Assembly: GCF_013315695.1 (NCBI RefSeq)
Contig: NZ_CP054353.1
From: Escherichia coli
GTDB lineage: Bacteria; Pseudomonadota; Gammaproteobacteria; Enterobacterales; Enterobacteriaceae
Reading direction: 5' to 3' (one strand)
Length of the DNA stretch: 64,000 bases
Notes under the pieces: generated by a model
Told to the model about the DNA's origin: nothing
What the model saw: only the letters and a program-made list of their open reading frames with translations
Databases searched by the model: none
In this document: positions 1,274 through 59,335 of the stretch, one piece after another
How positions within the stretch are numbered: position 1 is the first letter of the stretch
Layout of the letters: the number at the start of each line of letters is the position of its first letter
Program-made: the position numbers and the translations under genes

Positions 1274-1429
1274 TCAACTCAAGAGCCTTATTGCTGCTTC
1301 CAGAATTTCTTCTGAAGTAACATGTCGATCCGCGGCTACATAAATGACTTTATGATCTCCGGTCAGAGATGGAAACCCTGCGGCCATTACAGTAAGGTGT
1401 GTTTTTTCGCCATTTGGATATTCACGCAT
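1274..1429 (-). CDS. ynfN: YnfN-like small prophage protein (51 aa from internal Met; ORF extends to 1546)
   Basis: ORF 1274..1546; the internal start MREYPNGEKTHL... gives the 51-aa length I recall for ynfN; start choice uncertain. Confidence 0.5.
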   Translation of the reverse strand: MREYPNGEKTHLTVMAAGFPSLTGDHKVIYVAADRHVTSEEILEAAIRLLS

Positions 1430-1775
1430 GATGGTGTTAACTCCAGTCATCGCTGGCACTACCACTGCTGGTTCAGAGTTAAAAAAAACTATGATTTTTT
1501 TCATGATGTTACCGTAGTATGTGAGTACCCATCGAATAGACACCAAGCAAAAAAGCTCCCGAAGGAGCCTTCATTTTCACTTTTTTAAATCCAACGACAG
1601 ACGGCTGGCATTTAAGTATTGTGAAATATTATCAAATGTAATCATCATTGATTTACAAAAGATACATTTTGCCCCGAAAGGATTCATGTCAGAAACATCA
1701 AAAGATGATGTTCTATACTGGGAACCATGACAACACGGGCATCTAAAGTGAATATGGTTTGTAATATTGTCTACC

Positions 1776-1988
1776 TCAAAGCGCCACTACATGAACAGCG
1801 GCAGGACCTTTAGGTCCGTTCTCAATACCAAATTCAACTTCCTGATTCTCAGTTAATGTTTTGAAATCGTTGCTCTGAATTGCTGAGAAATGGACAAACA
1901 CATCTTTGCTGCCATCTTTCGGCGTGATGAAACCAAAACCTTTTTCAGGGTTAAACCATTTCACTAAACCAGTCATTTTGTTAGACAT
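1776..1988 (-). CDS. cspI: Cold-shock protein CspI (CspA family)
   Basis: 70-aa [41 protein letters not shown]... with the RNP1/RNP2 motifs of the CspA family. Confidence 0.9.
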
Positions 1989-2353
1989 AATTATTACCTT
2001 TTGAAGAAATTAGCCCTTGGGCAGAATGGTCCGAAAAAAAATATCAGAGAGAAAAACCAACAAGGAAATCTCAAGAGGTACAAATAATAAAATTATAACA
2101 ATGACTGCTTCAGATAAATTTGTAACAAACCAGAACACCATTAACGCATGATTAACCACCCATAGCAAGGATTACTTTTGTAAAGAAAAACACAGCAATG
2201 AAAGAATAGCTTTATTTATTAATAAAACGTGTCATTCTGATTAAGACCTTTTATCTTACCCTTAAGATTTCAGGAATTTTGGCTCATGGAAGAGTCCTTT
2301 TTATTTAAATTTTACATTCCGCGATGTAAATGTTCCGATTTAATATTACCCTA

Positions 2354-3373
<1,020 letters not shown>

Positions 3374-3377
<4 letters not shown>

Positions 3378-3685
3378 AGATATTTATGATGAGGACGCTC
3401 GTGCTTATTGGCAGGATTTTCAATCTTAAAGGAGTACTGATGCTGCAGATAAGACTCAACTTTTTCTGACAATTTTTCTGCTACTTCCAGGAAGACTTGC
3501 CGGACGCTCCTTCTGGCTGCTGCCTCATAAAACTCCAGCGCAGCTCCTTCAACACGGTCCATGGCGACATCCAGGTCAAAAATTTCACCGTCAAAGCGTT
3601 CTTTGTCCTGTAAGGCTACAGTTACCGTAACTTTATTCTCAAAATTACGGACTCCTTTCACAACCAGTTCATAGTCTTGAGTCAT
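3374..3685 (-). CDS. ydfR: Prophage protein YdfR (function unknown)
   Basis: 103-aa ORF between the holin and lysozyme genes, overlapping the lysozyme start. Confidence 0.65.
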
Positions 3686-3689
3686 TGGA

Positions 3690-3905
3690 TTACTCTCCTC
3701 TCGCAGCCTTACGCCTGTCTTCTTTAATCTTGAAATAAAGATTTGTCAGATACGTCAGCAGGCCAAAAACCAGGCTACCCAGCACACCGATTGCAGCCCA
3801 CTGTGACGGAGTTACTTTATCGAGTAACTGCAATGCCCAGAAACCAGCATTACCCGCCGATGTGCCATAGGCAACACCTGTTGTTAACTTATCCATTGAT
3901 TTCAT
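3690..3905 (-). CDS. essQ: Class II holin/pinholin (S21-like), 71 aa
   Basis: ORF 3690..3980; internal start [71 protein letters not shown] matches the phage-21 pinholin pattern (two TM helices, charged C-tail). Confidence 0.8.
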
Positions 3906-4124
3906 ATCCTCACCCCGATGTACACGGATGGTGCAATATGTTTGAAAAGCTCGGAGTCTACGGGGTAGTTTTGACAGCACACGTTGTTCTCAACGGCGCT
4001 AAAAAAACATACACATTAAAAATGTGGGTAATTATTTTGAAAGAAAGTCATATATAAAATAATAATACGAGAAATGTTTTCATATTTAGTGTACTGTATA
4101 CGGCCATTTATACAGGAAAAGCCT

Positions 4125-4295
4125 ATGTCAGAACGTAAAAACTCAAAATCACGCCGTAATTATCTCGTTAAATGTTCCTGCCCAAACTGCACCCAAGAGT
4201 CAGAACACAGTTTTTCAAGAGTACAAAAAGGTGCCCTTTTGATCTGCCCTCATTGCAACAAAGTATTCCAGACAAATCTTAAAGCTGTAGCCTGA
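4125..4295 (+). CDS. Small zinc-ribbon protein (C-x2-C ... C-x2-C), hypothetical; possibly ynfU
   Basis: ORF 4074..4295; internal start MSERKNSKSRRNYLVKCSCPNCTQESEHSFSRVQKGALLICPHCNKVF preceded by AGGAAAA; two CxxC pairs. Confidence 0.35.
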   Translation: MSERKNSKSRRNYLVKCSCPNCTQESEHSFSRVQKGALLICPHCNKVFQTNLKAVA

Positions 4296-4350
4296 TTGAT
4301 TTTATTAGTAACAAGTATTTTTTATATTTTAATAATATATTTAAAGCAGA

Positions 4351-4377
4351 TAATAAAAAACCCGCCTGAGCGGGTTT
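4351..4377 (-). terminator. Rho-independent terminator (hairpin aaacccgc-ctga-gcgggttt plus T-run on minus strand) downstream of cspB
   Basis: Perfect 8-bp stem read directly; the minus strand continues with TTTTTTTATT. Confidence 0.6.
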
Positions 4378-4658
4378 GAGATTGTGGTGCTTTTTGTGGG
4401 AGTCATCCACTTACGCACTTTGTTTTGCCATGCCAGCAGTTAGCTTCTGCTGTAAAACTATTCATGCAGCAAACCTGCACTTCACCACAATGGTTAGCAT
4501 ACTTTTCCTGATTAAGATTTTGCCAAATATGCTAGCCATTGTTTCATGTATTGGACCTCCTTACTTTTTATTAAAGAGATCCAATATTCACTACTCTGTC
4601 CGTATCTCTACTCAGGCATCAGCCTTCTTCGTTATCGTATACAGACGAGCGATGAATT

Positions 4659-4874
4659 TTAATCAGTAATGATGACATTTGCTGCTGCAGGACCTTTAGC
4701 ACCACTCTCTATAGAGAAGGTAACCTTTTGACCTTCAAATAAGGTTCGATAATTATCATTCTGAATCGCAGAAAAATGCACAAACACATCTTTACTACCA
4801 TCAACAGGAGAAATAAAGCCGAAACCTTTATCAGCGTTAAACCATTTTACTAAACCAGTCATTTTATTTGACAT
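4659..4874 (-). CDS. cspB: Cold-shock protein CspB (CspA family)
   Basis: 71-aa [56 protein letters not shown]... Confidence 0.9.
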
Positions 4875-5174
4875 TCTACATTCCTTAACTTGAGCCTTTC
4901 GGCATAAATGGTTTGCATAACAGAAACGACTTCGTACTTAATTGGAGAGACTCAAAGAAGGAATAAGTGAATAACACCTGAAATGAGAACTGCTTTAGTA
5001 AACTACTTCGTATATCGTCTGTTCTTCAAACCGACGCAATCATTAACGCATAGTTGAACATATGAAGCAATGTTTATTTTAGACATCCAGCCATCTTCAA
5101 CCCCATCAAAAAACTATAGCTTTCTTCAGGAACGTGTGTATAGTGCGCCAAGTTATCAGTATTAAGGAATTTTT

Positions 5175-8438: not shown

Positions 8439-8594
8439 TTACTCCTCAGGTTCGTAAGCTGTGAAGACAGCGACCTCCGTCTGGCCGGTTCGGATTCGTA
8501 CCTCGCAGAGGTCTTTCCTCGTTACCAGTGCCGTCACTATGACGGTTAAACAGATGACGATCAGGGCGATTAACATCGCCTTTTGCTGCTTCAT
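8439..8594 (-). CDS. hokD: Hok-family type I toxin HokD/RelF (51 aa)
   Basis: Manual translation: MKQQK... at 8594 and ...EPEE-stop at 8439; 52 codons; below the ORF-track cutoff. Confidence 0.8.
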   Translation of the reverse strand: MKQQKAMLIALIVICLTVIVTALVTRKDLCEVRIRTGQTEVAVFTAYEPEE

Positions 8595-8665
8595 AGCCTG
8601 CTTCTCCTGTCAACGCAAAGCAGAAGTGTCACCTTCGGTGCGAAACAGAGATGTCATGCTTTGGT

Positions 8666-8953
8666 TCAGAGAATGCGTTTGACCGCCTCGCTATATACTT
8701 CCGAGCGTTCTCTTTTCCCAACAGAAATCACGAAAACGACAACTTTCTCGTCTATAACCTGGTATACAAGGCGATAGCCTGAAGACCGGAGCTTAATCTT
8801 GTAACAATCAGGCATACCACGGAGCTTGTTTGCTTCAATCCGGGGTGACTCAAGTACTTCAACCAGCTTCTTTTTCAACTGTTCACGTACCGTCGAGCCC
8901 AGCTTTCGCCATTCCTTTAGTGCCCGCTCGTCAAAATCCAGAAAATACGCCAT
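8666..8953 (-). CDS. relE: RelE mRNA interferase toxin
   Basis: 95-aa ORF MAYFLDFDERALKEWRKLGSTVREQLKKKL...; start overlaps the relB stop. Confidence 0.9.
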   Translation of the reverse strand: MAYFLDFDERALKEWRKLGSTVREQLKKKLVEVLESPRIEANKLRGMPDCYKIKLRSSGYRLVYQVIDEKVVVFVISVGKRERSEVYSEAVKRIL

Positions 8954-9192
8954 CAGAGTTCATCCAGCGTCACACGTACTGGCTTAGGATTACGAAGCCG
9001 TTCTTTCACTATCTCCACAAGTTCAGCATCTTCATCACTCAGGAGTGTCTGTTTGAACGGCAAGCGTTCATTGTCAGCGATATACTCGAGCATGAGACGA
9101 AGCGCTTCAGAAGGAGTTACACCCATTTTTTCAAGCGCGGCGTAAGAACGCGCTTTAAGTTCATCGTCAATACGCAGGTTAATGCTACCCAT
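8953..9192 (-). CDS. relB: RelB antitoxin
   Basis: 79-aa ORF MGSINLRIDDELKARSYAALEKMGVTPSEALRLML... (ribbon-helix-helix type). Confidence 0.9.
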   Translation of the reverse strand: MGSINLRIDDELKARSYAALEKMGVTPSEALRLMLEYIADNERLPFKQTLLSDEDAELVEIVKERLRNPKPVRVTLDEL

Positions 9193-9203
9193 GTCTTACA
9201 CCT

Positions 9204-9229
9204 CTTGTAATTACAAATGTCATTACAAG
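9204..9229 (-). promoter_or_regulatory. relBE operator region: two adjacent palindromes TTGTAATTACAA and TTGTAATGACAT just upstream of relB
   Basis: Inverted repeats read directly, 12 bp upstream of the relB start codon. Confidence 0.6.
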
Positions 9230-9522
9230 TATCGCACTACAACATGCTTAGGGCAAGTCACGAAGGAAGTCAGAAAGTAGTCGTAAGAACGGTGATCACT
9301 GTCCGCTTTGTGCCAGGAGCAGCCATTGCTAAGTCCATCCTGTATTGTGCAGGTCAGCTCGTTTTTAAAGAGTCCGGCCATCATCTTACTGGTACAGACA
9401 CCATATACTTTGTGACGGTCAGGCTACATATGCACAACTCAACTTATTCATCTATTTTTTGCTTTAGCATGTCAGTGTTGCTTTCTCGTCGGCGGGTGAG
9501 CGGTGACCTGACCTGTCGATAA
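9217..9522 (+). CDS. ydfV: Prophage protein YdfV (hypothetical)
   Basis: 101-aa ORF divergent from relB; positional assignment. Confidence 0.45.
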   Translation: MSLQVSHYNMLRASHEGSQKVVVRTVITVRFVPGAAIAKSILYCAGQLVFKESGHHLTGTDTIYFVTVRLHMHNSTYSSIFCFSMSVLLSRRRVSGDLTCR

Positions 9523-9674
9523 AGGAACGTAACACGTTTTATGCAACACCCGCATGCGGCAGAAAATTATTGCCGAACGTTTACCCCTGTCAACAAGCTT
9601 TACTTTCTGAGGCGCGCCAGCCCGCGAGGAAAACAATCTGAACATCAAACAATTAATGACACAAGAAATACGAT

Positions 9675-9701
9675 TAAAGATTTTTTTGTGCATGCCGATA
9701 G
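9675..9701 (+). promoter_or_regulatory. Sigma-28 (FliA) type promoter: TAAAGATT-N11-GCCGATAG upstream of flxA
   Basis: Match to the class 3 flagellar promoter consensus TAAAGTTT-N11-GCCGATAA read directly; ~25 bp upstream of the flxA start. Confidence 0.6.
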
Positions 9702-9724
9702 TGCTTTTTTAAAAGGAGAAATCT

Positions 9725-10057
9725 ATGTCTGTCACAATTCAGGGAAATACCTCAACCGTTATTTCAAACAACTCCGCCCCGGAAGGAACATCAGAAATAG
9801 CCAAAATCACAAGACAAATTCAGGTGCTGACTGAAAAGCTTGGGAAAATCTCATCGGAAGAGGGGATGACGACACAGCAGAAAAAAGAAATGGCTGCATT
9901 GGTACAGAAGCAAATTGAAAGCCTCTGGGCTCAACTGGAGCAGTTGTTAAGGCAGCAGGCAGAGAAAAAGAATGAAGACGCGACAGTTCAGCCTGATAAA
10001 AAAGAAGAGAAAAAAGACGATACAAATACCGCTGGCACCATTGATATTTACGTCTAA
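9725..10057 (+). CDS. flxA: FlxA (FliA-regulated protein)
   Basis: 110-aa ORF MSVTIQGNTSTVISNNSAPEG... with a coiled-coil-like middle and Lys/Glu-rich tail. Confidence 0.8.
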   Translation: MSVTIQGNTSTVISNNSAPEGTSEIAKITRQIQVLTEKLGKISSEEGMTTQQKKEMAALVQKQIESLWAQLEQLLRQQAEKKNEDATVQPDKKEEKKDDTNTAGTIDIYV

Positions 10058-10429
10058 GTGACAGCCGTATTGTGGCCCTCATCGGGCCACTTTTCGCCAT
10101 CAGCCTTTTCTTTAAAGACATATTATCTTTGTATCATTTCTGATAGTTAACATTACAAGATATAAGTAATGGACGCACTCCCAATTAGTCTATTTAAATC
10201 GCCACGAGTTTAACTGACAACCCATGATCAATTATGAATTGCAACTATTTCTGTAGTCACTTTTGTGGGGACAGTCCACAAAACTGCCAACTTCCGCTTC
10301 TTGCTCTTAGCGGACATTAGCATAGGCTATTTACCATAACGCCTCATTACGCGCACCGCCCAGACTGACTCAGCGCGTTTCTGGCATATCCCCGGTAAAA
10401 CAAGTAACAAACCACCCGAAAATGAACAC

Positions 10430-11900
10430 CAGAAACGCGACTTAAGAATCTACCCTATGAATGGATATGCACTCAACCGAATCGATCTTGGTTTCAATCT
10501 TTTTTATCGGGATCAGGCTTCTTTTTAGGTAACTTCGGGGGCTTAACTTGCTGATGACTTTGCGTTCGGCGCGTAAGCCAGGGATGGTCAGCTTTAGGTT
10601 TAACATAGTATTTTGAGCGTAAATCAATACGGGCATTATCCACTCGTTCATGGACACTCTTTTCATCATCCAGTGGTATAGGCTCCGGGCCATCAACATA
10701 CTTTTCCCAGCCCAGCGCTTTCCCGTCATACAGAACGTTAATTTCACCGTCAAAGTTCTCGCATACAGTAACAACCGAATGCCTAAGTCGATATCCCCGG
10801 CCCTCACTGCGTACCTGAAACGCACTGCTTTTGTACTGGAAAGTGAGATTTTTAGACAGAACGCGCTTCGCCTGTAGGCTGAAGATATAACCCAGTTCCT
10901 CTTCAGAATGGTGCACATCAAGATGAGCATTATCAGTAGTACGAGGCGACGTAGCGAACCGGTTGTTATAGGCTTCAATAAAGGTCGGCAACCATGCATT
11001 TGCTGTTTCAATATCACTGATATTCTGAAGCCGCATTTCTTTGACCAGCCTGTCCTGTAGTGTCTGATTGGCGCGCTCTACCCGCCCTTTTGCCTGCGGG
11101 CTGTTGGCATGGATTGGCTCGATGCCCAGTGTCTTTATCGCACGAGTGAACTGGGTCAGCTCACCTTCCCGCTCTGGGTTATTTACCCTGAATATACTGT
11201 GTCTATCAGAGTAGAGAGCGAGCGGTACGCCATGATCATTAAGGTAACCCCGGAGGGTTTCCATGTAAGCCCGGGTTGTTTCAGCAGGCACAAAACGCAA
11301 CGCCATCAACGCACTGGTGGCATCATCAATGAAAACGATCAGTGTACATCTGGGGCCTCGATTTTCAAACCAGTCATGAGGTGAGCCATCAATCTGGATC
11401 AGTTCACCGTAAGATGGTCGTCGCATGCGGCGTTGATATATACGGGCAATTTTACGACGGCGTTCACGCCATAACCCCTCTTCTATCATCCACTTTCTGA
11501 GAGTTTCAACGGATAAAGATAAACCGTGTATCTCGCGCAATTTTTCGCACGCAAACGTAGGTCCAAAATCAGCGTAACGGCCTTTGAGGAGTGAAATTAC
11601 TGTTGCTCTGAATTCAGTAGAAAAGGAATTATTAGGACGCTTTCCACGTCGGTGGGAAACCAGAGCAGAAGGCCCTTCATTTCTATACCGTTGCACCAGA
11701 CGTTTAACCTGCCGAATAGAAATGCCAATGCGTGCCGCAGCTTGTTCCTGAATAATCTGAAGTCGGTGGAGTTCCTTATGACTCATCGTAACAGTCTCTT
11801 TGATCATGAAAAATCCCCCAGAGAATTGTCTGGGGACATTTTAGAATGGTTCAAAGGGGACATTACAGCTTGGTGTTAACAATAGCCTGCTTCTCCGTGC
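10430..11900 (-). mobile_element. Probable insertion sequence carrying a single DDE (rve-type) transposase; boundaries approximate
   Basis: Single 437-aa transposase ORF flanked by non-coding DNA with GGGGACA-type repeats and a candidate imperfect terminal repeat (AGGCTATT... at ~10330 and ~11885); ends not resolved. Confidence 0.4.
10494..11807 (-). CDS. DDE transposase, integrase-core (rve) type with N-terminal HTH (IS481/ISNCY-like)
   Basis: 437-aa ORF with N-terminal HTH (AARIGISIRQVKRLVQRY) and core ...IDGSPHDWF...FIDDATS...YSDRHSIF...SPQAKGRVERANQTLQDRL... Confidence 0.6.
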   Translation of the reverse strand: MIKETVTMSHKELHRLQIIQEQAAARIGISIRQVKRLVQRYRNEGPSALVSHRRGKRPNNSFSTEFRATVISLLKGRYADFGPTFACEKLREIHGLSLSVETLRKWMIEEGLWRERRRKIARIYQRRMRRPSYGELIQIDGSPHDWFENRGPRCTLIVFIDDATSALMALRFVPAETTRAYMETLRGYLNDHGVPLALYSDRHSIFRVNNPEREGELTQFTRAIKTLGIEPIHANSPQAKGRVERANQTLQDRLVKEMRLQNISDIETANAWLPTFIEAYNNRFATSPRTTDNAHLDVHHSEEELGYIFSLQAKRVLSKNLTFQYKSSAFQVRSEGRGYRLRHSVVTVCENFDGEINVLYDGKALGWEKYVDGPEPIPLDDEKSVHERVDNARIDLRSKYYVKPKADHPWLTRRTQSHQQVKPPKLPKKKPDPDKKD

Positions 11901-12141
11901 CTTTCGGCACGTAAGAGGCTAACCTACATGTGTCTAGCATGAAATTGGCCTCAGATTAATGTTAAGCGTCTTGCAGGACGCGTAATGTTAACTGGGGCTT
12001 TTCTCTATCTGCCGTTGGTGTCCATGCCCGAGGCAGATAGCCTCAAGCACCCGCAGTCATTCTACTTAACTAAGATTTCCCCGCAAACCGTTTTTGTCCA
12101 GCACAGTAAATATCCAACTAAACCAATGGAGTTCGCTGTAT

Positions 12142-17502: not shown

Positions 17503-17557
17503 TTTCTGGTGACGTTTGGCGGTATCAGTTTTACTCCGTGACTGCTCTGCCGCCCTT
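17503..17557 (+). ncRNA. dicF: DicF small regulatory RNA (anti-ftsZ)
   Basis: Sequence TTTCTGGTGACGTTTGGCGGTATCAGTTTTACTCCGTGACTGCTCTGCCGCCC followed by TTTTT matches DicF as I remember it; directly upstream of dicB. Confidence 0.8.
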
Positions 17558-45690: not shown

Positions 45691-47082
<1,392 letters not shown>

Positions 47083-57444: not shown

Positions 57445-58870
57445 TAATGCCAGTCAGTTAAGCAACTGACTGGCTCTTTTTCGGGGCTGTGGGGTATTTC
57501 CAGGGCCTCTCCTTTACCACTCTCGGGAAGGCCCTTTCCCTTCTTGTCGGTAATTTCACAAGTTGTCCCATACTTGCAAGATCGCGCATCAGCTCCGGTA
57601 TACGTCCCGGTGAAGCGCCCTGCAATGTCATCAGCATTCTCATCACCATTCCGCATGATTCTGAGAAACTCAGTTGATTCGGCCAGTAACCTTTCAGATG
57701 TTCCGCCATTTTAATCATCTGATATCTCACCAGATTATAAGCCAGTAAGACACCCCACAGCTCTTGCTCCACAAGCTCCGGTTTTTTACTTCTCAGCGTC
57801 AGCCTGCTCAGTTGCATCGTCTGTTTTATCTCCCTGTATCCCAGTTCGATTTCCCAGCGATGACTGTACAGATCCGCCATTTCTCCTCCGGGGAAGCGCA
57901 TGGCGTCCGTCATCGACGTCAGCAGATGGCAGACTTTTCCTTTGCGCGTCACGGTCAGCAGGCGGGCTGTCACTTCATTTCCCAGTCCCGGCCACTTTTT
58001 TCGTGCCTGCGGGCTGGTTTTCAGCTTCACCAGATGATCGCCTTTACCCAGTTTTCTGATCTCTTCATATTGCGCTCCCTTTCTGAGAGGTATCATCCAG
58101 TGGCGGTGTTCTCCCGCCAGGCTCCAGGCATTTAACAGTCCCAGTGAGTAATAACCTTTATCCATTAACGTCAGAGTGTTATCGCCGGTTTGTTCTATAA
58201 GTTGCTCAGCAAGCTCATTTTCGCTGTTCTTCATCGTGCCGAAGGCTGCAGCCGTCAGCAGATGGCTGGTCAGTTCCATCTGGCAGACCATTTTGACCTG
58301 CGGGTAGAGCGCCGGGTTCCCGGCATGTGTCTGGCGGGGGAAGGCTGCATCGTTCTCTGGTGTATCCGGTGTGCGCCAGAACACACCATCGATGGCCAGC
58401 AGGGTCAGGCCGCACCAGTGCGGATGCGGCGTGGCGTTATGCCAGAGCTGCGCTGTTTTCGTGAACACGCGGCGGACAGCCTCACTTCCCAGGCGCTGGC
58501 GGGCCTGAATAACGGCACTGGGGGCAACGAAGGGGCGATTGCCCGGCAGCATGATGTCCAGGCGATTCACAATCTGGTGAAGAGGTTCTTTACGCTCAAG
58601 CGCCATGCCAACAATACACCAGACCATCATTTCGAGGGGAAGACGGCGCTTGCGTAGCGTTACAGTACCTGATTCGGCAAGGCAACGAGAGATGAGTTCG
58701 GGGTCGAGGTAATCCCCCAGAGAAGTCAGTGGGTTACGCAGAGAATCGTAACGGGATACCAGATCAAGAGCCTGTCCAATGTGCATAAAAAAATCCGGAA
58801 ACAAGTGAGCGTTTCCGGATTCTTACACAGCCACTGGATCGGTCAACTGATCCTTAACTGATCGGCATTA
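57445..58870 (-). mobile_element. IS4 (1426 bp) with intact terminal inverted repeats and no flanking direct repeat
   Basis: Ends TAATGCCAGTCAGTTAAG at 57445 and CCTTAACTGATCGGCATTA at 58852-58870; 442-aa IS4 transposase inside; flanking 12-mers differ. Confidence 0.9.
57458..58786 (-). CDS. insG: IS4 transposase (InsG)
   Basis: ORF 57458..58804 with start [31 protein letters not shown]... Confidence 0.9.
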
Positions 58871-59335
58871 CTCCCTGGGGACAGTAAATAAAAGCAAAGT
58901 ACCTCTGGGTTTAAGCGCAACCTATGGACAAACAGGAAACAAGGTTGCAGCCGGAACCGTCCAGTCAGTCATTGGTGTCACTTTTATCTATGAATAATTG
59001 TGATTTTGACCTTAGTCTATGCGCTCCATTCGCGAAAATTGCGCGGATAATTATTTTGTGAAGGCTATTATCCTACACCTGTAAGAAAATCCGCGCACAA
59101 TTAACGCCAGAGTCTTATTTTTTATATTGAAAAACATGTTAATTTAAACACTATGAGAGATGATGCTTAACTTATCGTATTTATACCATTCTATTATTTA
59201 ACGATAATAGATTAAAAATAGAAAGAGAGTAGTCCCCTACTCTTATATATCCATATTGACGATAATCCCTTTGTATATACTGTGCATCATCGCTATTTCA
59301 AATCCTAATAATTCATTTCCACACAGGATAAGTAG

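Follow-up and report, generated by a model that had tools for sequence, protein, structure and literature searches.

A 3274-bp IS1202-family transposon of the ISEsa1 type, with relBE inside its right end, is the probable occupant of the hokD start in an Escherichia coli prophage

In a stretch of 64,000 nucleotides from the Escherichia coli contig NZ_CP054353.1 (assembly GCF_013315695.1; the whole stretch is called the window below), an uninterrupted open reading frame (ORF) of 437 amino acids lies on the minus strand at 10494..11807, between a hok leader and the genes flxA, ydfV, relB and relE. The question raised by this locus is which mobile element the ORF belongs to, and where that element ends. 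An earlier note, made from the sequence alone, had taken the ORF for the DDE transposase of an unclassified insertion sequence (IS) at 10430-11900, with GGGGACA repeats in its flanks. The comparisons described here make it very probable that the DNA from 8608 to 11881 is one inserted IS1202-family transposon, oriented on the minus strand. It is also likely, in our judgement, that the ISEsa1 clade to which the transposon belongs prefers the starts of type I toxin genes and carries an addiction module and cargo, that relBE-hokD, flxA, ydfV and ydfW of E. coli K-12 are the decayed remains of such a transposon, and that the listed ISEsa1 is its transposase arm only.

The identity of the transposase was examined at the protein level. 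The helix-turn-helix (HTH) at the N-terminus and the rve-type core described in the earlier note were recovered with Pfam: HTH_29, HTH_32, HTH_28 and HTH_23 overlap in residues 20-107, and rve_3, which includes ...SPQAKGRVERANQTLQDRL..., covers the core at residues 229-282. The top NCBIfam match was NF033594 (transpos_ISNCY_2), with 455.7 bits against a curated cut-off of 250 and over positions 7-365 of the 368 in the model. The IS481, IS21, IS630 and IS3 models of NCBIfam all stayed under their own cut-offs for this ORF, and these scores agree with the earlier statement that it is none of the common E. coli IS transposases. The catalytic residues are D140, D201 and E244, accompanied by D161-D162 and Q251, and all of them are invariant in an alignment of seven sequences with identities down to 61%. 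The IS1202 signature consists of an HTH and a DDE core, with two D between the first and the second catalytic D and a Q seven residues past the E (Siguier et al.), and the protein fits it. When the transposase was compared with plasmids by tblastn, it was 97.7% identical over 421 residues to genes for WP_004196353 (446 aa) in Klebsiella, Enterobacter, Serratia, Phytobacter and E. coli, which the Prokaryotic Genome Annotation Pipeline (PGAP) labels 'IS1202-like element ISEsa1 family transposase'. At the nucleotide level, the window and the plasmid copies were 99.6% identical over 1471 bp, a 27-bp gap aside. Judged by sequence, the 437-aa ORF is the transposase gene of an ISEsa1-type element of the IS1202 family (ISNCY in ISfinder and NCBI), the name ISEsa1 being assigned through the PGAP-named copies (99.6% in nucleotides, 97.7% in amino acids) and not through the ISfinder reference itself. 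The element is consequently not unclassified; it is a known IS with different boundaries, an outcome that the earlier note had itself foreseen. A profile search of the transposase against PDB sequences gave no match, so that its likeness to TnsB is taken from the literature.

The boundaries were determined by comparison with an empty site, as the earlier note had proposed. Uninterrupted hok loci (L012, L013 and L014) are collinear with the window from 12528 to 11882 and then from 8608 to 8344, the latter part being the hokD coding region. The two empty-site alignments overlap by GGAGAAGCAGGCTAT, which is present twice in the window (11882-11896 and 8593-8607) and once in the empty sites. Therefore, the inserted DNA spans 8608-11881, a length of 3274 bp, and its target duplication of 15 bp is perfect. 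The left boundary was also found with the plasmid copies, whose homology to the window ends at 11881 against four unrelated flanks, and the sense strand starts there with 5'-TGTTAACACCAAGCTGTAATGTCCCC. The left end, which reads 5'-TGTTAAC... and holds two GGGGACA repeats on the transposase-proximal side, agrees with the one proposed in the earlier note, whose span covered the gene and this left end but missed the true right end at 8608.

The inverted repeats (IRs) of the unit, IRL on the left and IRR on the right, are 26 bp long, match at 19 of 26 positions and have TGT...ACA termini. IRR is identical or near-identical in L015, L027, L020, L030 and L016. Relatives retain the subterminal site of the left end as ...TTCTAAAATGTCCCC, even at a transposase identity of only 61%, and carry GGGGACACTTCTG at the place equivalent to the right subterminal repeat. 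The ends expected of the IS1202 family, namely IRs of 24-28 bp with 5'-TGT...ACA-3' termini and an extra internal site, were found at 11881 and 8608 and were not found near 10300. The perfect duplication of 15 bp also falls within the lengths known for the family (5-6, 15-17 and 27-28 bp), and 15-bp duplications were seen at L015, L027, L016 and L089 as well. It is observed in passing that the three length classes differ by about one helical turn.

A right end near 10260-10330, as suggested before, was not found, the empty sites putting it at 8608. In the interval 10200-10500, the best match to the IRL 26-mer was 14/26 (at 10368), and the sole 15/22 match was subterminal (11868 versus 10381); neither a TGT/ACA terminus nor a duplication accompanied them, and this interval was rejected as the right end. 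The degenerate relic at 10368-10402 is probably the 'IR 15/22' listed for ISEsa1. The hairpin TTTTGTGGGGACAGTCCACAAAA is indeed present, 2 nt away from its reported place, at 10261-10283; it folds weakly (z = -1.55), lies in variant-specific cargo and was rejected as an element end. As for the GGGGACA repeats, GTCTGGGGACATT is at 11828 and AAGGGGACATTAC at 11854, and the pair at 11832 and 11856, 24 bp apart, does sit in the element end, but the copy at 10267 is variant-specific cargo that is absent from other cargo variants. The window has five copies of GGGGACA on its plus strand and one on its minus strand, against an expectation of about 3.9 for each strand, which is about chance level. The proposed terminal repeat AGGCTATT does occur at 10324, with its complement AATAGCCT at 11881, but it is not an inverted repeat, one copy being part of the target duplication (11882-11888) and the other an accidental internal match. 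Similarly, the 10-mer TGGGGACAGT recurs at 58876, 5 nt outside the IS4 end, as had been reported; for any one 10-mer, about 0.12 further copies would be expected in 64 kb with both strands counted, and this candidate was rejected as about chance level and unrelated to the ends. The IS4 end at 58840-58870 reads ...GATCGGCATTA / ...TTAACTGATCGGCATTA and has no link to the ISEsa1-type element.

The genes between the two ends are arranged as cargo between two conserved arms. IRL, the second GGGGACA site, a hairpin and the gene for the DDE transposase make up the left arm, which is what is customarily annotated as ISEsa1; relB, relE, the subterminal site and IRR make up the right arm. Since flxA, ydfV, relB and relE are passengers inside the ends, the element is not an insertion sequence in the strict sense and is a transposon or 'transporter IS'. 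The adjacent relB and relE encode proteins identical to WP_000534858 and WP_000323025 and form a type II toxin-antitoxin (TA) pair. In the Phytobacter plasmid pMRY16-398_1, psiA and a hok leader (RF01794, 106 bits) are followed by IRL-tnp-ncrYCBA-...-chrBA-...-relBE-IRR and then by the hok coding sequence, and GGAGAAGTCAGCTAT, the target variant of this plasmid, is found on both sides. The window and the plasmid have in common the segments 11937-10289 (transposase) and 9319-8590 (relBE, 98.5% identical), with about 10.5 kb of different cargo between. A third cargo, of about 7.4 kb, lies between the same two arms in a metagenome-assembled contig (L009), which was among the only four loci returned when genome contigs were scanned for the end of the transposase arm. 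The arm boundaries recur to within a few bases (10289-10300 and 9319-9322), and the one at 10300 is 1609 bp from IRL when the 27 bp are restored. We infer that the right boundary in ISfinder was set where copies with different cargo diverge. Two further features of these boundaries were observed. A search of the cargo junctions for a common recombination site gave only an 8-bp repeat, AAGCGGA(A/C), which is present at both of them (10289-10299 and about 9300-9310), also in the plasmid, and may mark how the cargo is exchanged. The sequence at 9327-9352, one of only three positions in the window that score at least 17/26 to IRL, matches it at 17/26 in right-end orientation, 5 nt from the junction between the cargo and the relBE arm, and may be a relic of a former right end or a chance match.

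The complete unit was also met elsewhere. Among viral and prophage contigs, 41 carry IRL and 27 carry IRR too; in the latter, the unit measures 3274 bp (n = 12), 3301 or 3302 bp at the Qin-type target (n = 13), or 2261 and 4655 bp (n = 1 each). A degenerate IRL pattern returned the same 41 loci, and the IRL of the 79% clade had no match in the viral contigs. The relE-IRR-hok junction was found in several hundred plasmids from many Enterobacterales genera. In one viral contig (L042, IMGVR_UViG_2912051188_000002, 1345-4645), the full unit of 3301 bp, with nine mismatches to the window besides the 27-bp indel, lies downstream of a lambdoid Q gene, at a site unrelated to hok, and its flanks join without a gap on an uninterrupted homologue, the duplication (CGCCTT) being 6 bp. 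Therefore, it is the whole unit that moves and not a 1.6-kb piece.

The target in the window is a hok gene. A match to the full Rfam model of the sok/hok leader (RF01794, 104 bits) covers 11881-12052 and ends at the first base of the element. The leader region of 259 bp is 92-98% identical to the DNA directly upstream of annotated hok in thousands of E. coli genomes. The sok leader and this Hok coding sequence are not adjacent in the window, the two halves being 3274 bp apart; they are contiguous in L012-L014. The 15-bp duplication spans the hokD ribosome-binding site and start codon, and a strong, imperfect hairpin (z = -4.35) has the hok target as its 3' half. The hok leader was also considered as a 'pseudo-end' resembling the right end of the element, and was rejected since no consistent register was seen by eye.

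We propose the following course of events. From what is known of the family, the transposase would bind paired sites at both ends, cleave at 5'-TGT / ACA-3' and join the ends to staggered target cuts, 15 bp apart, at the ribosome-binding site and start codon of the prophage hok gene. From the anatomy of the locus, the insertion would have separated hokD from its promoter, from mok and from the sok target, the duplication leaving the sok/leader half orphaned upstream (11882-12052). The same duplication would have rebuilt the ribosome-binding site and the ATG of hokD directly after relE, where the gene would be read from the relBE promoter. In this manner hokD would come to follow relB and relE in their operon as its third gene, giving the classical relB-relE-hokD (relBEF) arrangement; co-transcription of relBEF is already known. 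The terminator-like hairpin at 11815-11836 stands between the hok promoter side and the ATG of the transposase gene.

Related elements were found at the same position in at least seven diverged hok loci. Besides the Qin-type hokD of the window (duplication GGAGAAGCAGGCTAT), the targets with a duplication are an IncF plasmid hok (L015, transposase about 98% identical to that of the window; GGAGAAGTCAGCTAT), a Citrobacter plasmid hok with relBE at the right end of the element (L027, 79%; GGAGAAGAAGGCCAT), a Salmonella plasmid hok (L030/L031, 78%; GGAGTAGAAGCTAT(G)) and a chromosomal hok of Kosakonia in the livF/ugpB interval, where the cargo is parDE, gnsAB and ars (L020-L023, 79%; GGAGCCGCAGGCTAT / GGCCGCAGGCTAT). 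The left flank only was available for L024/L086 (85-86%; GGAGAAAAAGGCTAT), L085/L088 (86%; GGAGAAGAAGGCCAT(G/T)) and L076 (GGAGGGGCTATGATG). The elements of L027, L030, L020, L024, L085 and L076 occupy the same position of diverged hok leaders, and the Rfam sok matches terminate at IRL in L007, L020, L027, L030 and L076. In L024 the sok match lies about 1.4 kb upstream of IRL, with an IS3-family insertion between, and the flank abutting IRL is hok-leader-like. Wherever both junctions were seen, the two copies of the duplication match each other and differ among loci. This speaks for separate transpositions, and against one event spread by recombination.

An unrelated toxin gene is hit in the same manner. 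In Salmonella (L016, 75% identical), a plain IS of 1.45 kb with IRs matching at 22/26 is flanked by the 15-bp CAAGGCGGCTATATG, within which is the ATG of an Ldr toxin gene; the antitoxin RNA rdlD is found just upstream. Counted on the sequences, the insertion point is 39-41 nt downstream of a TAGCC motif in all these hok and ldr targets, and a possible determinant of the target is the stretch of about 25 bp just upstream of the duplication, TAGCC...GGCAA. We consider it likely that the preference of this clade for hok and ldr is genuine. The addiction module carried is relBE, or parDE in the sister clade, and the cargo includes nickel, chromate and arsenic resistance on IncF plasmids. The more distant relatives, at about 61%, are ordinary multicopy ISs; their ends are built in the same way, and their duplications, at varied sites, are of about 15-17 bp.

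Some further observations were made on these relatives. In the sister clade at 77-79% (L020-L023, L027-L032 and L084), a parDE-type TA pair on the opposite strand always comes immediately after the transposase gene, and the elements also carry ars operons or other cargo; L027 has the relBE right arm in addition, and the arms appear to recombine between clades. In a metagenome contig (L036, about 4370-4398), an IS of the 61% group is followed by a spacer of about 17 bp, the length of a target, and then by the start of a second copy; such a tandem insertion into a regenerated target would be expected for a site-preferring element. In L087 (about 60-110), the tip of IRL is partially duplicated (TGTTAACACT|TGTTAACACTAAGC) in a shortened hok leader, which makes this a rearranged junction.

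Three other explanations of the locus were weighed. A simple 1.6-kb IS, that is, ISEsa1 as listed, from 11881 to about 10300 beside the hok leader, with flxA-ydfV-relBE arriving separately, is very unlikely. The ISfinder data given by Harmer and Hall (1609 bp, IR 15/22, 439-aa transposase) speak for it, as do the loss of homology at 10289-10300 in copies with different cargo and the right-end-like relic at 10368-10402. However, neither a TGT/ACA terminus nor a duplication is found at this boundary, the same relBE-IRR arm follows behind all three 'different right flanks', one insertion of 3274 bp with 15 bp duplicated is what the empty site shows, and the whole unit is intact again at the L042 site. 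The listed 15/22 repeats do not delimit an element of 1609 bp here, the real right end being at 8608. Even less credible is a prophage-intrinsic or domesticated gene without IS ends (an integrase or Mu-like gene, historically 'intK'), which the earlier note had also envisaged. Such a gene would be in keeping with the single copy, always in Qin-type prophages, of E. coli chromosomes and with the annotation of the K-12 remnant as a separate gene; nevertheless, the ends, the duplication and the empty sites are defined, near-identical copies occur on hundreds of plasmids in other genera, and the family model is matched above its curated cut-off.

With the unit itself real, its recurrence at hok starts might be due, instead of to target-specific transposition, to a single ancient insertion that homologous recombination then spread between hok loci, or to a selection for harmless sites; we regard this as unlikely, if less so than the two explanations above. 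The hok leader and coding sequence do provide flanking homology on plasmids and prophages, several of the plasmid contexts share the psiB-psiA-hok region of IncF, and the mixed flanks of L076 and L063 indicate recombination. However, each locus has a duplication of its own, identical on both sides (GGAGAAGCAGGCTAT, GGAGAAGTCAGCTAT, GGAGAAGAAGGCCAT and GGAGTAGAAGCTATG), elements with transposases only 75-86% identical lie at the same nucleotide position, the unrelated ldr gene is struck at the equivalent place, and selection for harmless sites alone does not yield single-nucleotide precision.

Several points weigh against the reading of 8608-11881 as one transposon with a preference for toxin starts. 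No transposition event was observed; the window transposase has a nine-residue deletion, and genomes carry a median of one copy at one locus. A genuinely mobile 1.6-kb ISEsa1 may exist, the ISfinder entry being known here only via Harmer and Hall, and the relic at 10368-10402 suggests a former, shorter ancestral IS. A chance match of 19/26 to IRL lies inside pntB (46767-46792). Because it equals the match between the two ends, IR similarity is not diagnostic by itself, and the case for the unit is made by the empty site and the duplication. As for the target, a 10.2-kb transposon with a perfect 15-bp duplication occupies a non-toxin site, the interval between a serB-like gene and smp (L089/L090), L042 has a duplication of only 6 bp at its non-hok site, and L084 and L008 have left flanks that do not resemble hok. 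The target preference is not absolute.

The copy in the window is probably inactive and immobile, because nine residues are lost at the first HTH and a single copy is found at a fixed locus. The 27-bp in-frame deletion in the transposase gene removes QESINRHIT directly before the first HTH, and one substitution is the only other difference from WP_004196353. Some of the gene is present in 1165 of 5426 complete E. coli genomes and at least 80% of it in 789, with a median of one copy per genome, almost always chromosomal and beside ydfW. In an evenly spaced sample of 40 rows, about 18 had the deleted form, about 8 the intact form and about 12 a remnant of 179 bp as in K-12. K-12 MG1655 matches the window exactly over 9700-10678 and then breaks off, the remainder of the transposase gene being lost. 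Since the stop of ydfW (b1567, formerly 'intK') is the transposase stop in the same frame, YdfW corresponds to the last 49 codons of the transposase, and from this sequence comparison K-12 ydfW is a 3' remnant of an ISEsa1-type transposase gene. In genomes identical to the window, PGAP splits the intact 437-aa ORF into ydfW and a 'transposase pseudogene missing C-terminus', a division that deserves attention in annotation.

The coordinates are collected in Table 1. The surroundings contain cspA-type thermoregulator leaders at 1749-2134 and 4643-5035 and DicF at 17504-17555 (Rfam), which are consistent with a Qin-type cryptic prophage. The segment 19300-20059 is 99.7% identical to an annotated IS2 copy in L013, so that the window also includes IS2 sequence.

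Table 1. Features of the transposon and of the hok locus in the window
Feature	Position	Strand	Basis
Whole unit, 3274-bp IS1202-family transposon (ISEsa1 transposase arm, cargo, relBE arm)	8608..11881	-	Empty-site alignment
Orphaned hok leader / sok region	11881..12052	-	RF01794, 104 bits, full model
Left 15-bp target duplication GGAGAAGCAGGCTAT	11882..11896	-	Same as 8593-8607; single in empty sites
IRL 5'-TGTTAACACCAAGCTGTAATGTCCCC, contains AAGGGGACATTAC	11856..11881	-	Homology break against four flanks; conserved in relatives
IRL-core subterminal repeat (GGGGACA), 24 bp inside the terminal copy; presumed second transposase-binding site	11828..11840	-	Motif positions
Terminator-like hairpin TCCCCAGACAATTCTCTGGGGG and T run, directly upstream of the transposase ATG	11815..11836	-	Consensus scan only
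Transposase gene, 437 aa (canonical ISEsa1 446 aa)	10494..11807	-	ORF, NCBIfam, Pfam, alignment
27-bp deletion site, between imperfect repeats ATTAYTCAGGA	11746..11759	-	Alignment with plasmid copies
'ydfW' as annotated in K-12 and by PGAP; 49 C-terminal transposase codons	10494..10643	-	K-12 and PGAP comparison
Internal degenerate right-end-like relic, 15/22 to subterminal IRL, without TGT/ACA terminus	10368..10402	+	IR scan
End of the conserved transposase arm; cargo varies beyond	10289..10300	.	Coincides with the 1609-bp ISfinder length plus 27 bp
Hairpin TTTTGTGGGGACAGTCCACAAAA in variant-specific cargo	10261..10283	.	z = -1.55; absent from plasmid and L009 cargo variants
flxA (cargo)	9725..10057	+	ORF, annotation
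ydfV (cargo)	9217..9522	+	ORF, annotation
Conserved right arm: relB promoter region, relB, relE, right end	8608..9322	-	98-99% with copies carrying other cargo
relB antitoxin gene	8953..9192	-	NF008412, 133 bits
relE toxin gene	8666..8953	-	TIGR02385, 54.7 bits
Right-end subterminal repeat GCATGACATCTCTG, about 24 bp inside the terminal site, mirrors the left end	8646..8659	-	Sequence
IRR ...GGTGACACTTCTGCTTTGCGTTGACA-3', 19/26 to IRL, ACA terminus	8608..8633	-	End alignment
Right 15-bp target duplication, returns to hokD its ribosome-binding site and the AT of its ATG	8593..8607	-	Junction sequence
hokD coding sequence, severed from its own leader, now downstream of relBE	8439..8594	-	Hok family match

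Compared with known systems, the closest is ISEsa1 itself, from Enterobacter/Cronobacter sakazakii (ISfinder: ISNCY, IS1202 group), which is listed with 1609 bp, IR 15/22, a 439-aa transposase, no target-site duplication (TSD) and no recognisable target, and is placed in a separate 'no TSD' branch (Harmer & Hall 2023, PMC10132070). The transposase is the same save the nine-residue deletion and one substitution, the left end is the same, and the 439-aa product, counted from the MSHKEL start, corresponds to the 446-aa ORF. However, the functional unit found here has 3.3 kb (12.8 kb on plasmids), IRs of 19/26 and a 15-bp duplication, together with a right end that carries relBE and a preference for hok starts. 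This suggests that the ISfinder entry is mis-delimited. The ISTde1 subgroup, with direct repeats of 15-17 bp, shares the TGT termini, the conserved inner IR block and the 15-bp duplication; it is likened here by ends and duplication and not by phylogeny, and a target preference is unreported there. The ISAjo2/ISAba32 subgroup also has a TnsB-like DDE transposase that consists of a single protein, two sites for it at each end and oriented, site-specific insertion, but it inserts 5 bp from XerC/D (dif-like) sites with duplications of 5-6 bp, whereas here type I toxin starts are used with 15 bp. In passenger-carrying IS1202 elements (ISKpn21, 'transporter IS'), the cargo likewise lies between the transposase gene and the right end; here it is exchangeable between two conserved arms, the right one being a relBE addiction module. 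Tn7 resembles the present unit in its TGT...ACA termini, its site-specific insertion and the several sites that the transposase has at each end (Harmer & Hall, PMC10132070), but its duplication is 5 bp and not 15 bp. Between 8608 and 11881 no ORFs for TnsA, TnsC or TnsD/E were found, so that the unit is not Tn7-like in its gene content.

Mobile DNA at chromosomal hok loci has been described before. Pedersen and Gerdes are said to have reported, in 1999, IS150 and IS186 insertions beside hokA, hokC and hokE and a 'major rearrangement' at hokD in K-12. As conveyed by a paper that cites it, relBE coming from plasmids was described as 'integrated into hokD' (Ramisetty & Santhosh 2016). These accounts have in common with ours that chromosomal hok loci are inactivated by mobile DNA and that relBE is an insertion upstream of hokD. 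In the form in which they are conveyed, however, they name no transposon, ends, duplication or transposase, and all four are identified here. Full-text literature searches, within the library searched, gave no paper that connects hok or type I toxins with IS1202 or ISNCY. Already known are the transposase and the family to which it belongs; because of this search result, the redrawn ISEsa1 with its 15-bp duplication, the exchangeable cargo with the relBE arm, and the preference for toxin starts appear to be new.

The puzzle left by the family survey (Harmer & Hall 2023), an ISEsa1 without TSD and without a target, is suggested to have its answer in a misplaced right end. With the correct ends, ISEsa1 joins the 15-17-bp class, and its strong target preference is the second kind to be reported in the family after the dif sites. 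A concrete origin is also offered for a much-studied TA locus: K-12 would have its relBE as the cargo of a transposon that landed on hokD. The relBEF operon, the ydfW/'intK' fragment and, in related strains, the orphan sok leader would be accounted for in this way. The same vehicle brings nickel, chromate and arsenic resistance into the hok locus in the leading region of IncF plasmids, with hosts in Klebsiella, Enterobacter, Citrobacter and Salmonella, and its delimitation matters for the annotation of resistance plasmids. The relBE module, or parDE in the sister clade, would stabilise the replicon that carries the transposon.

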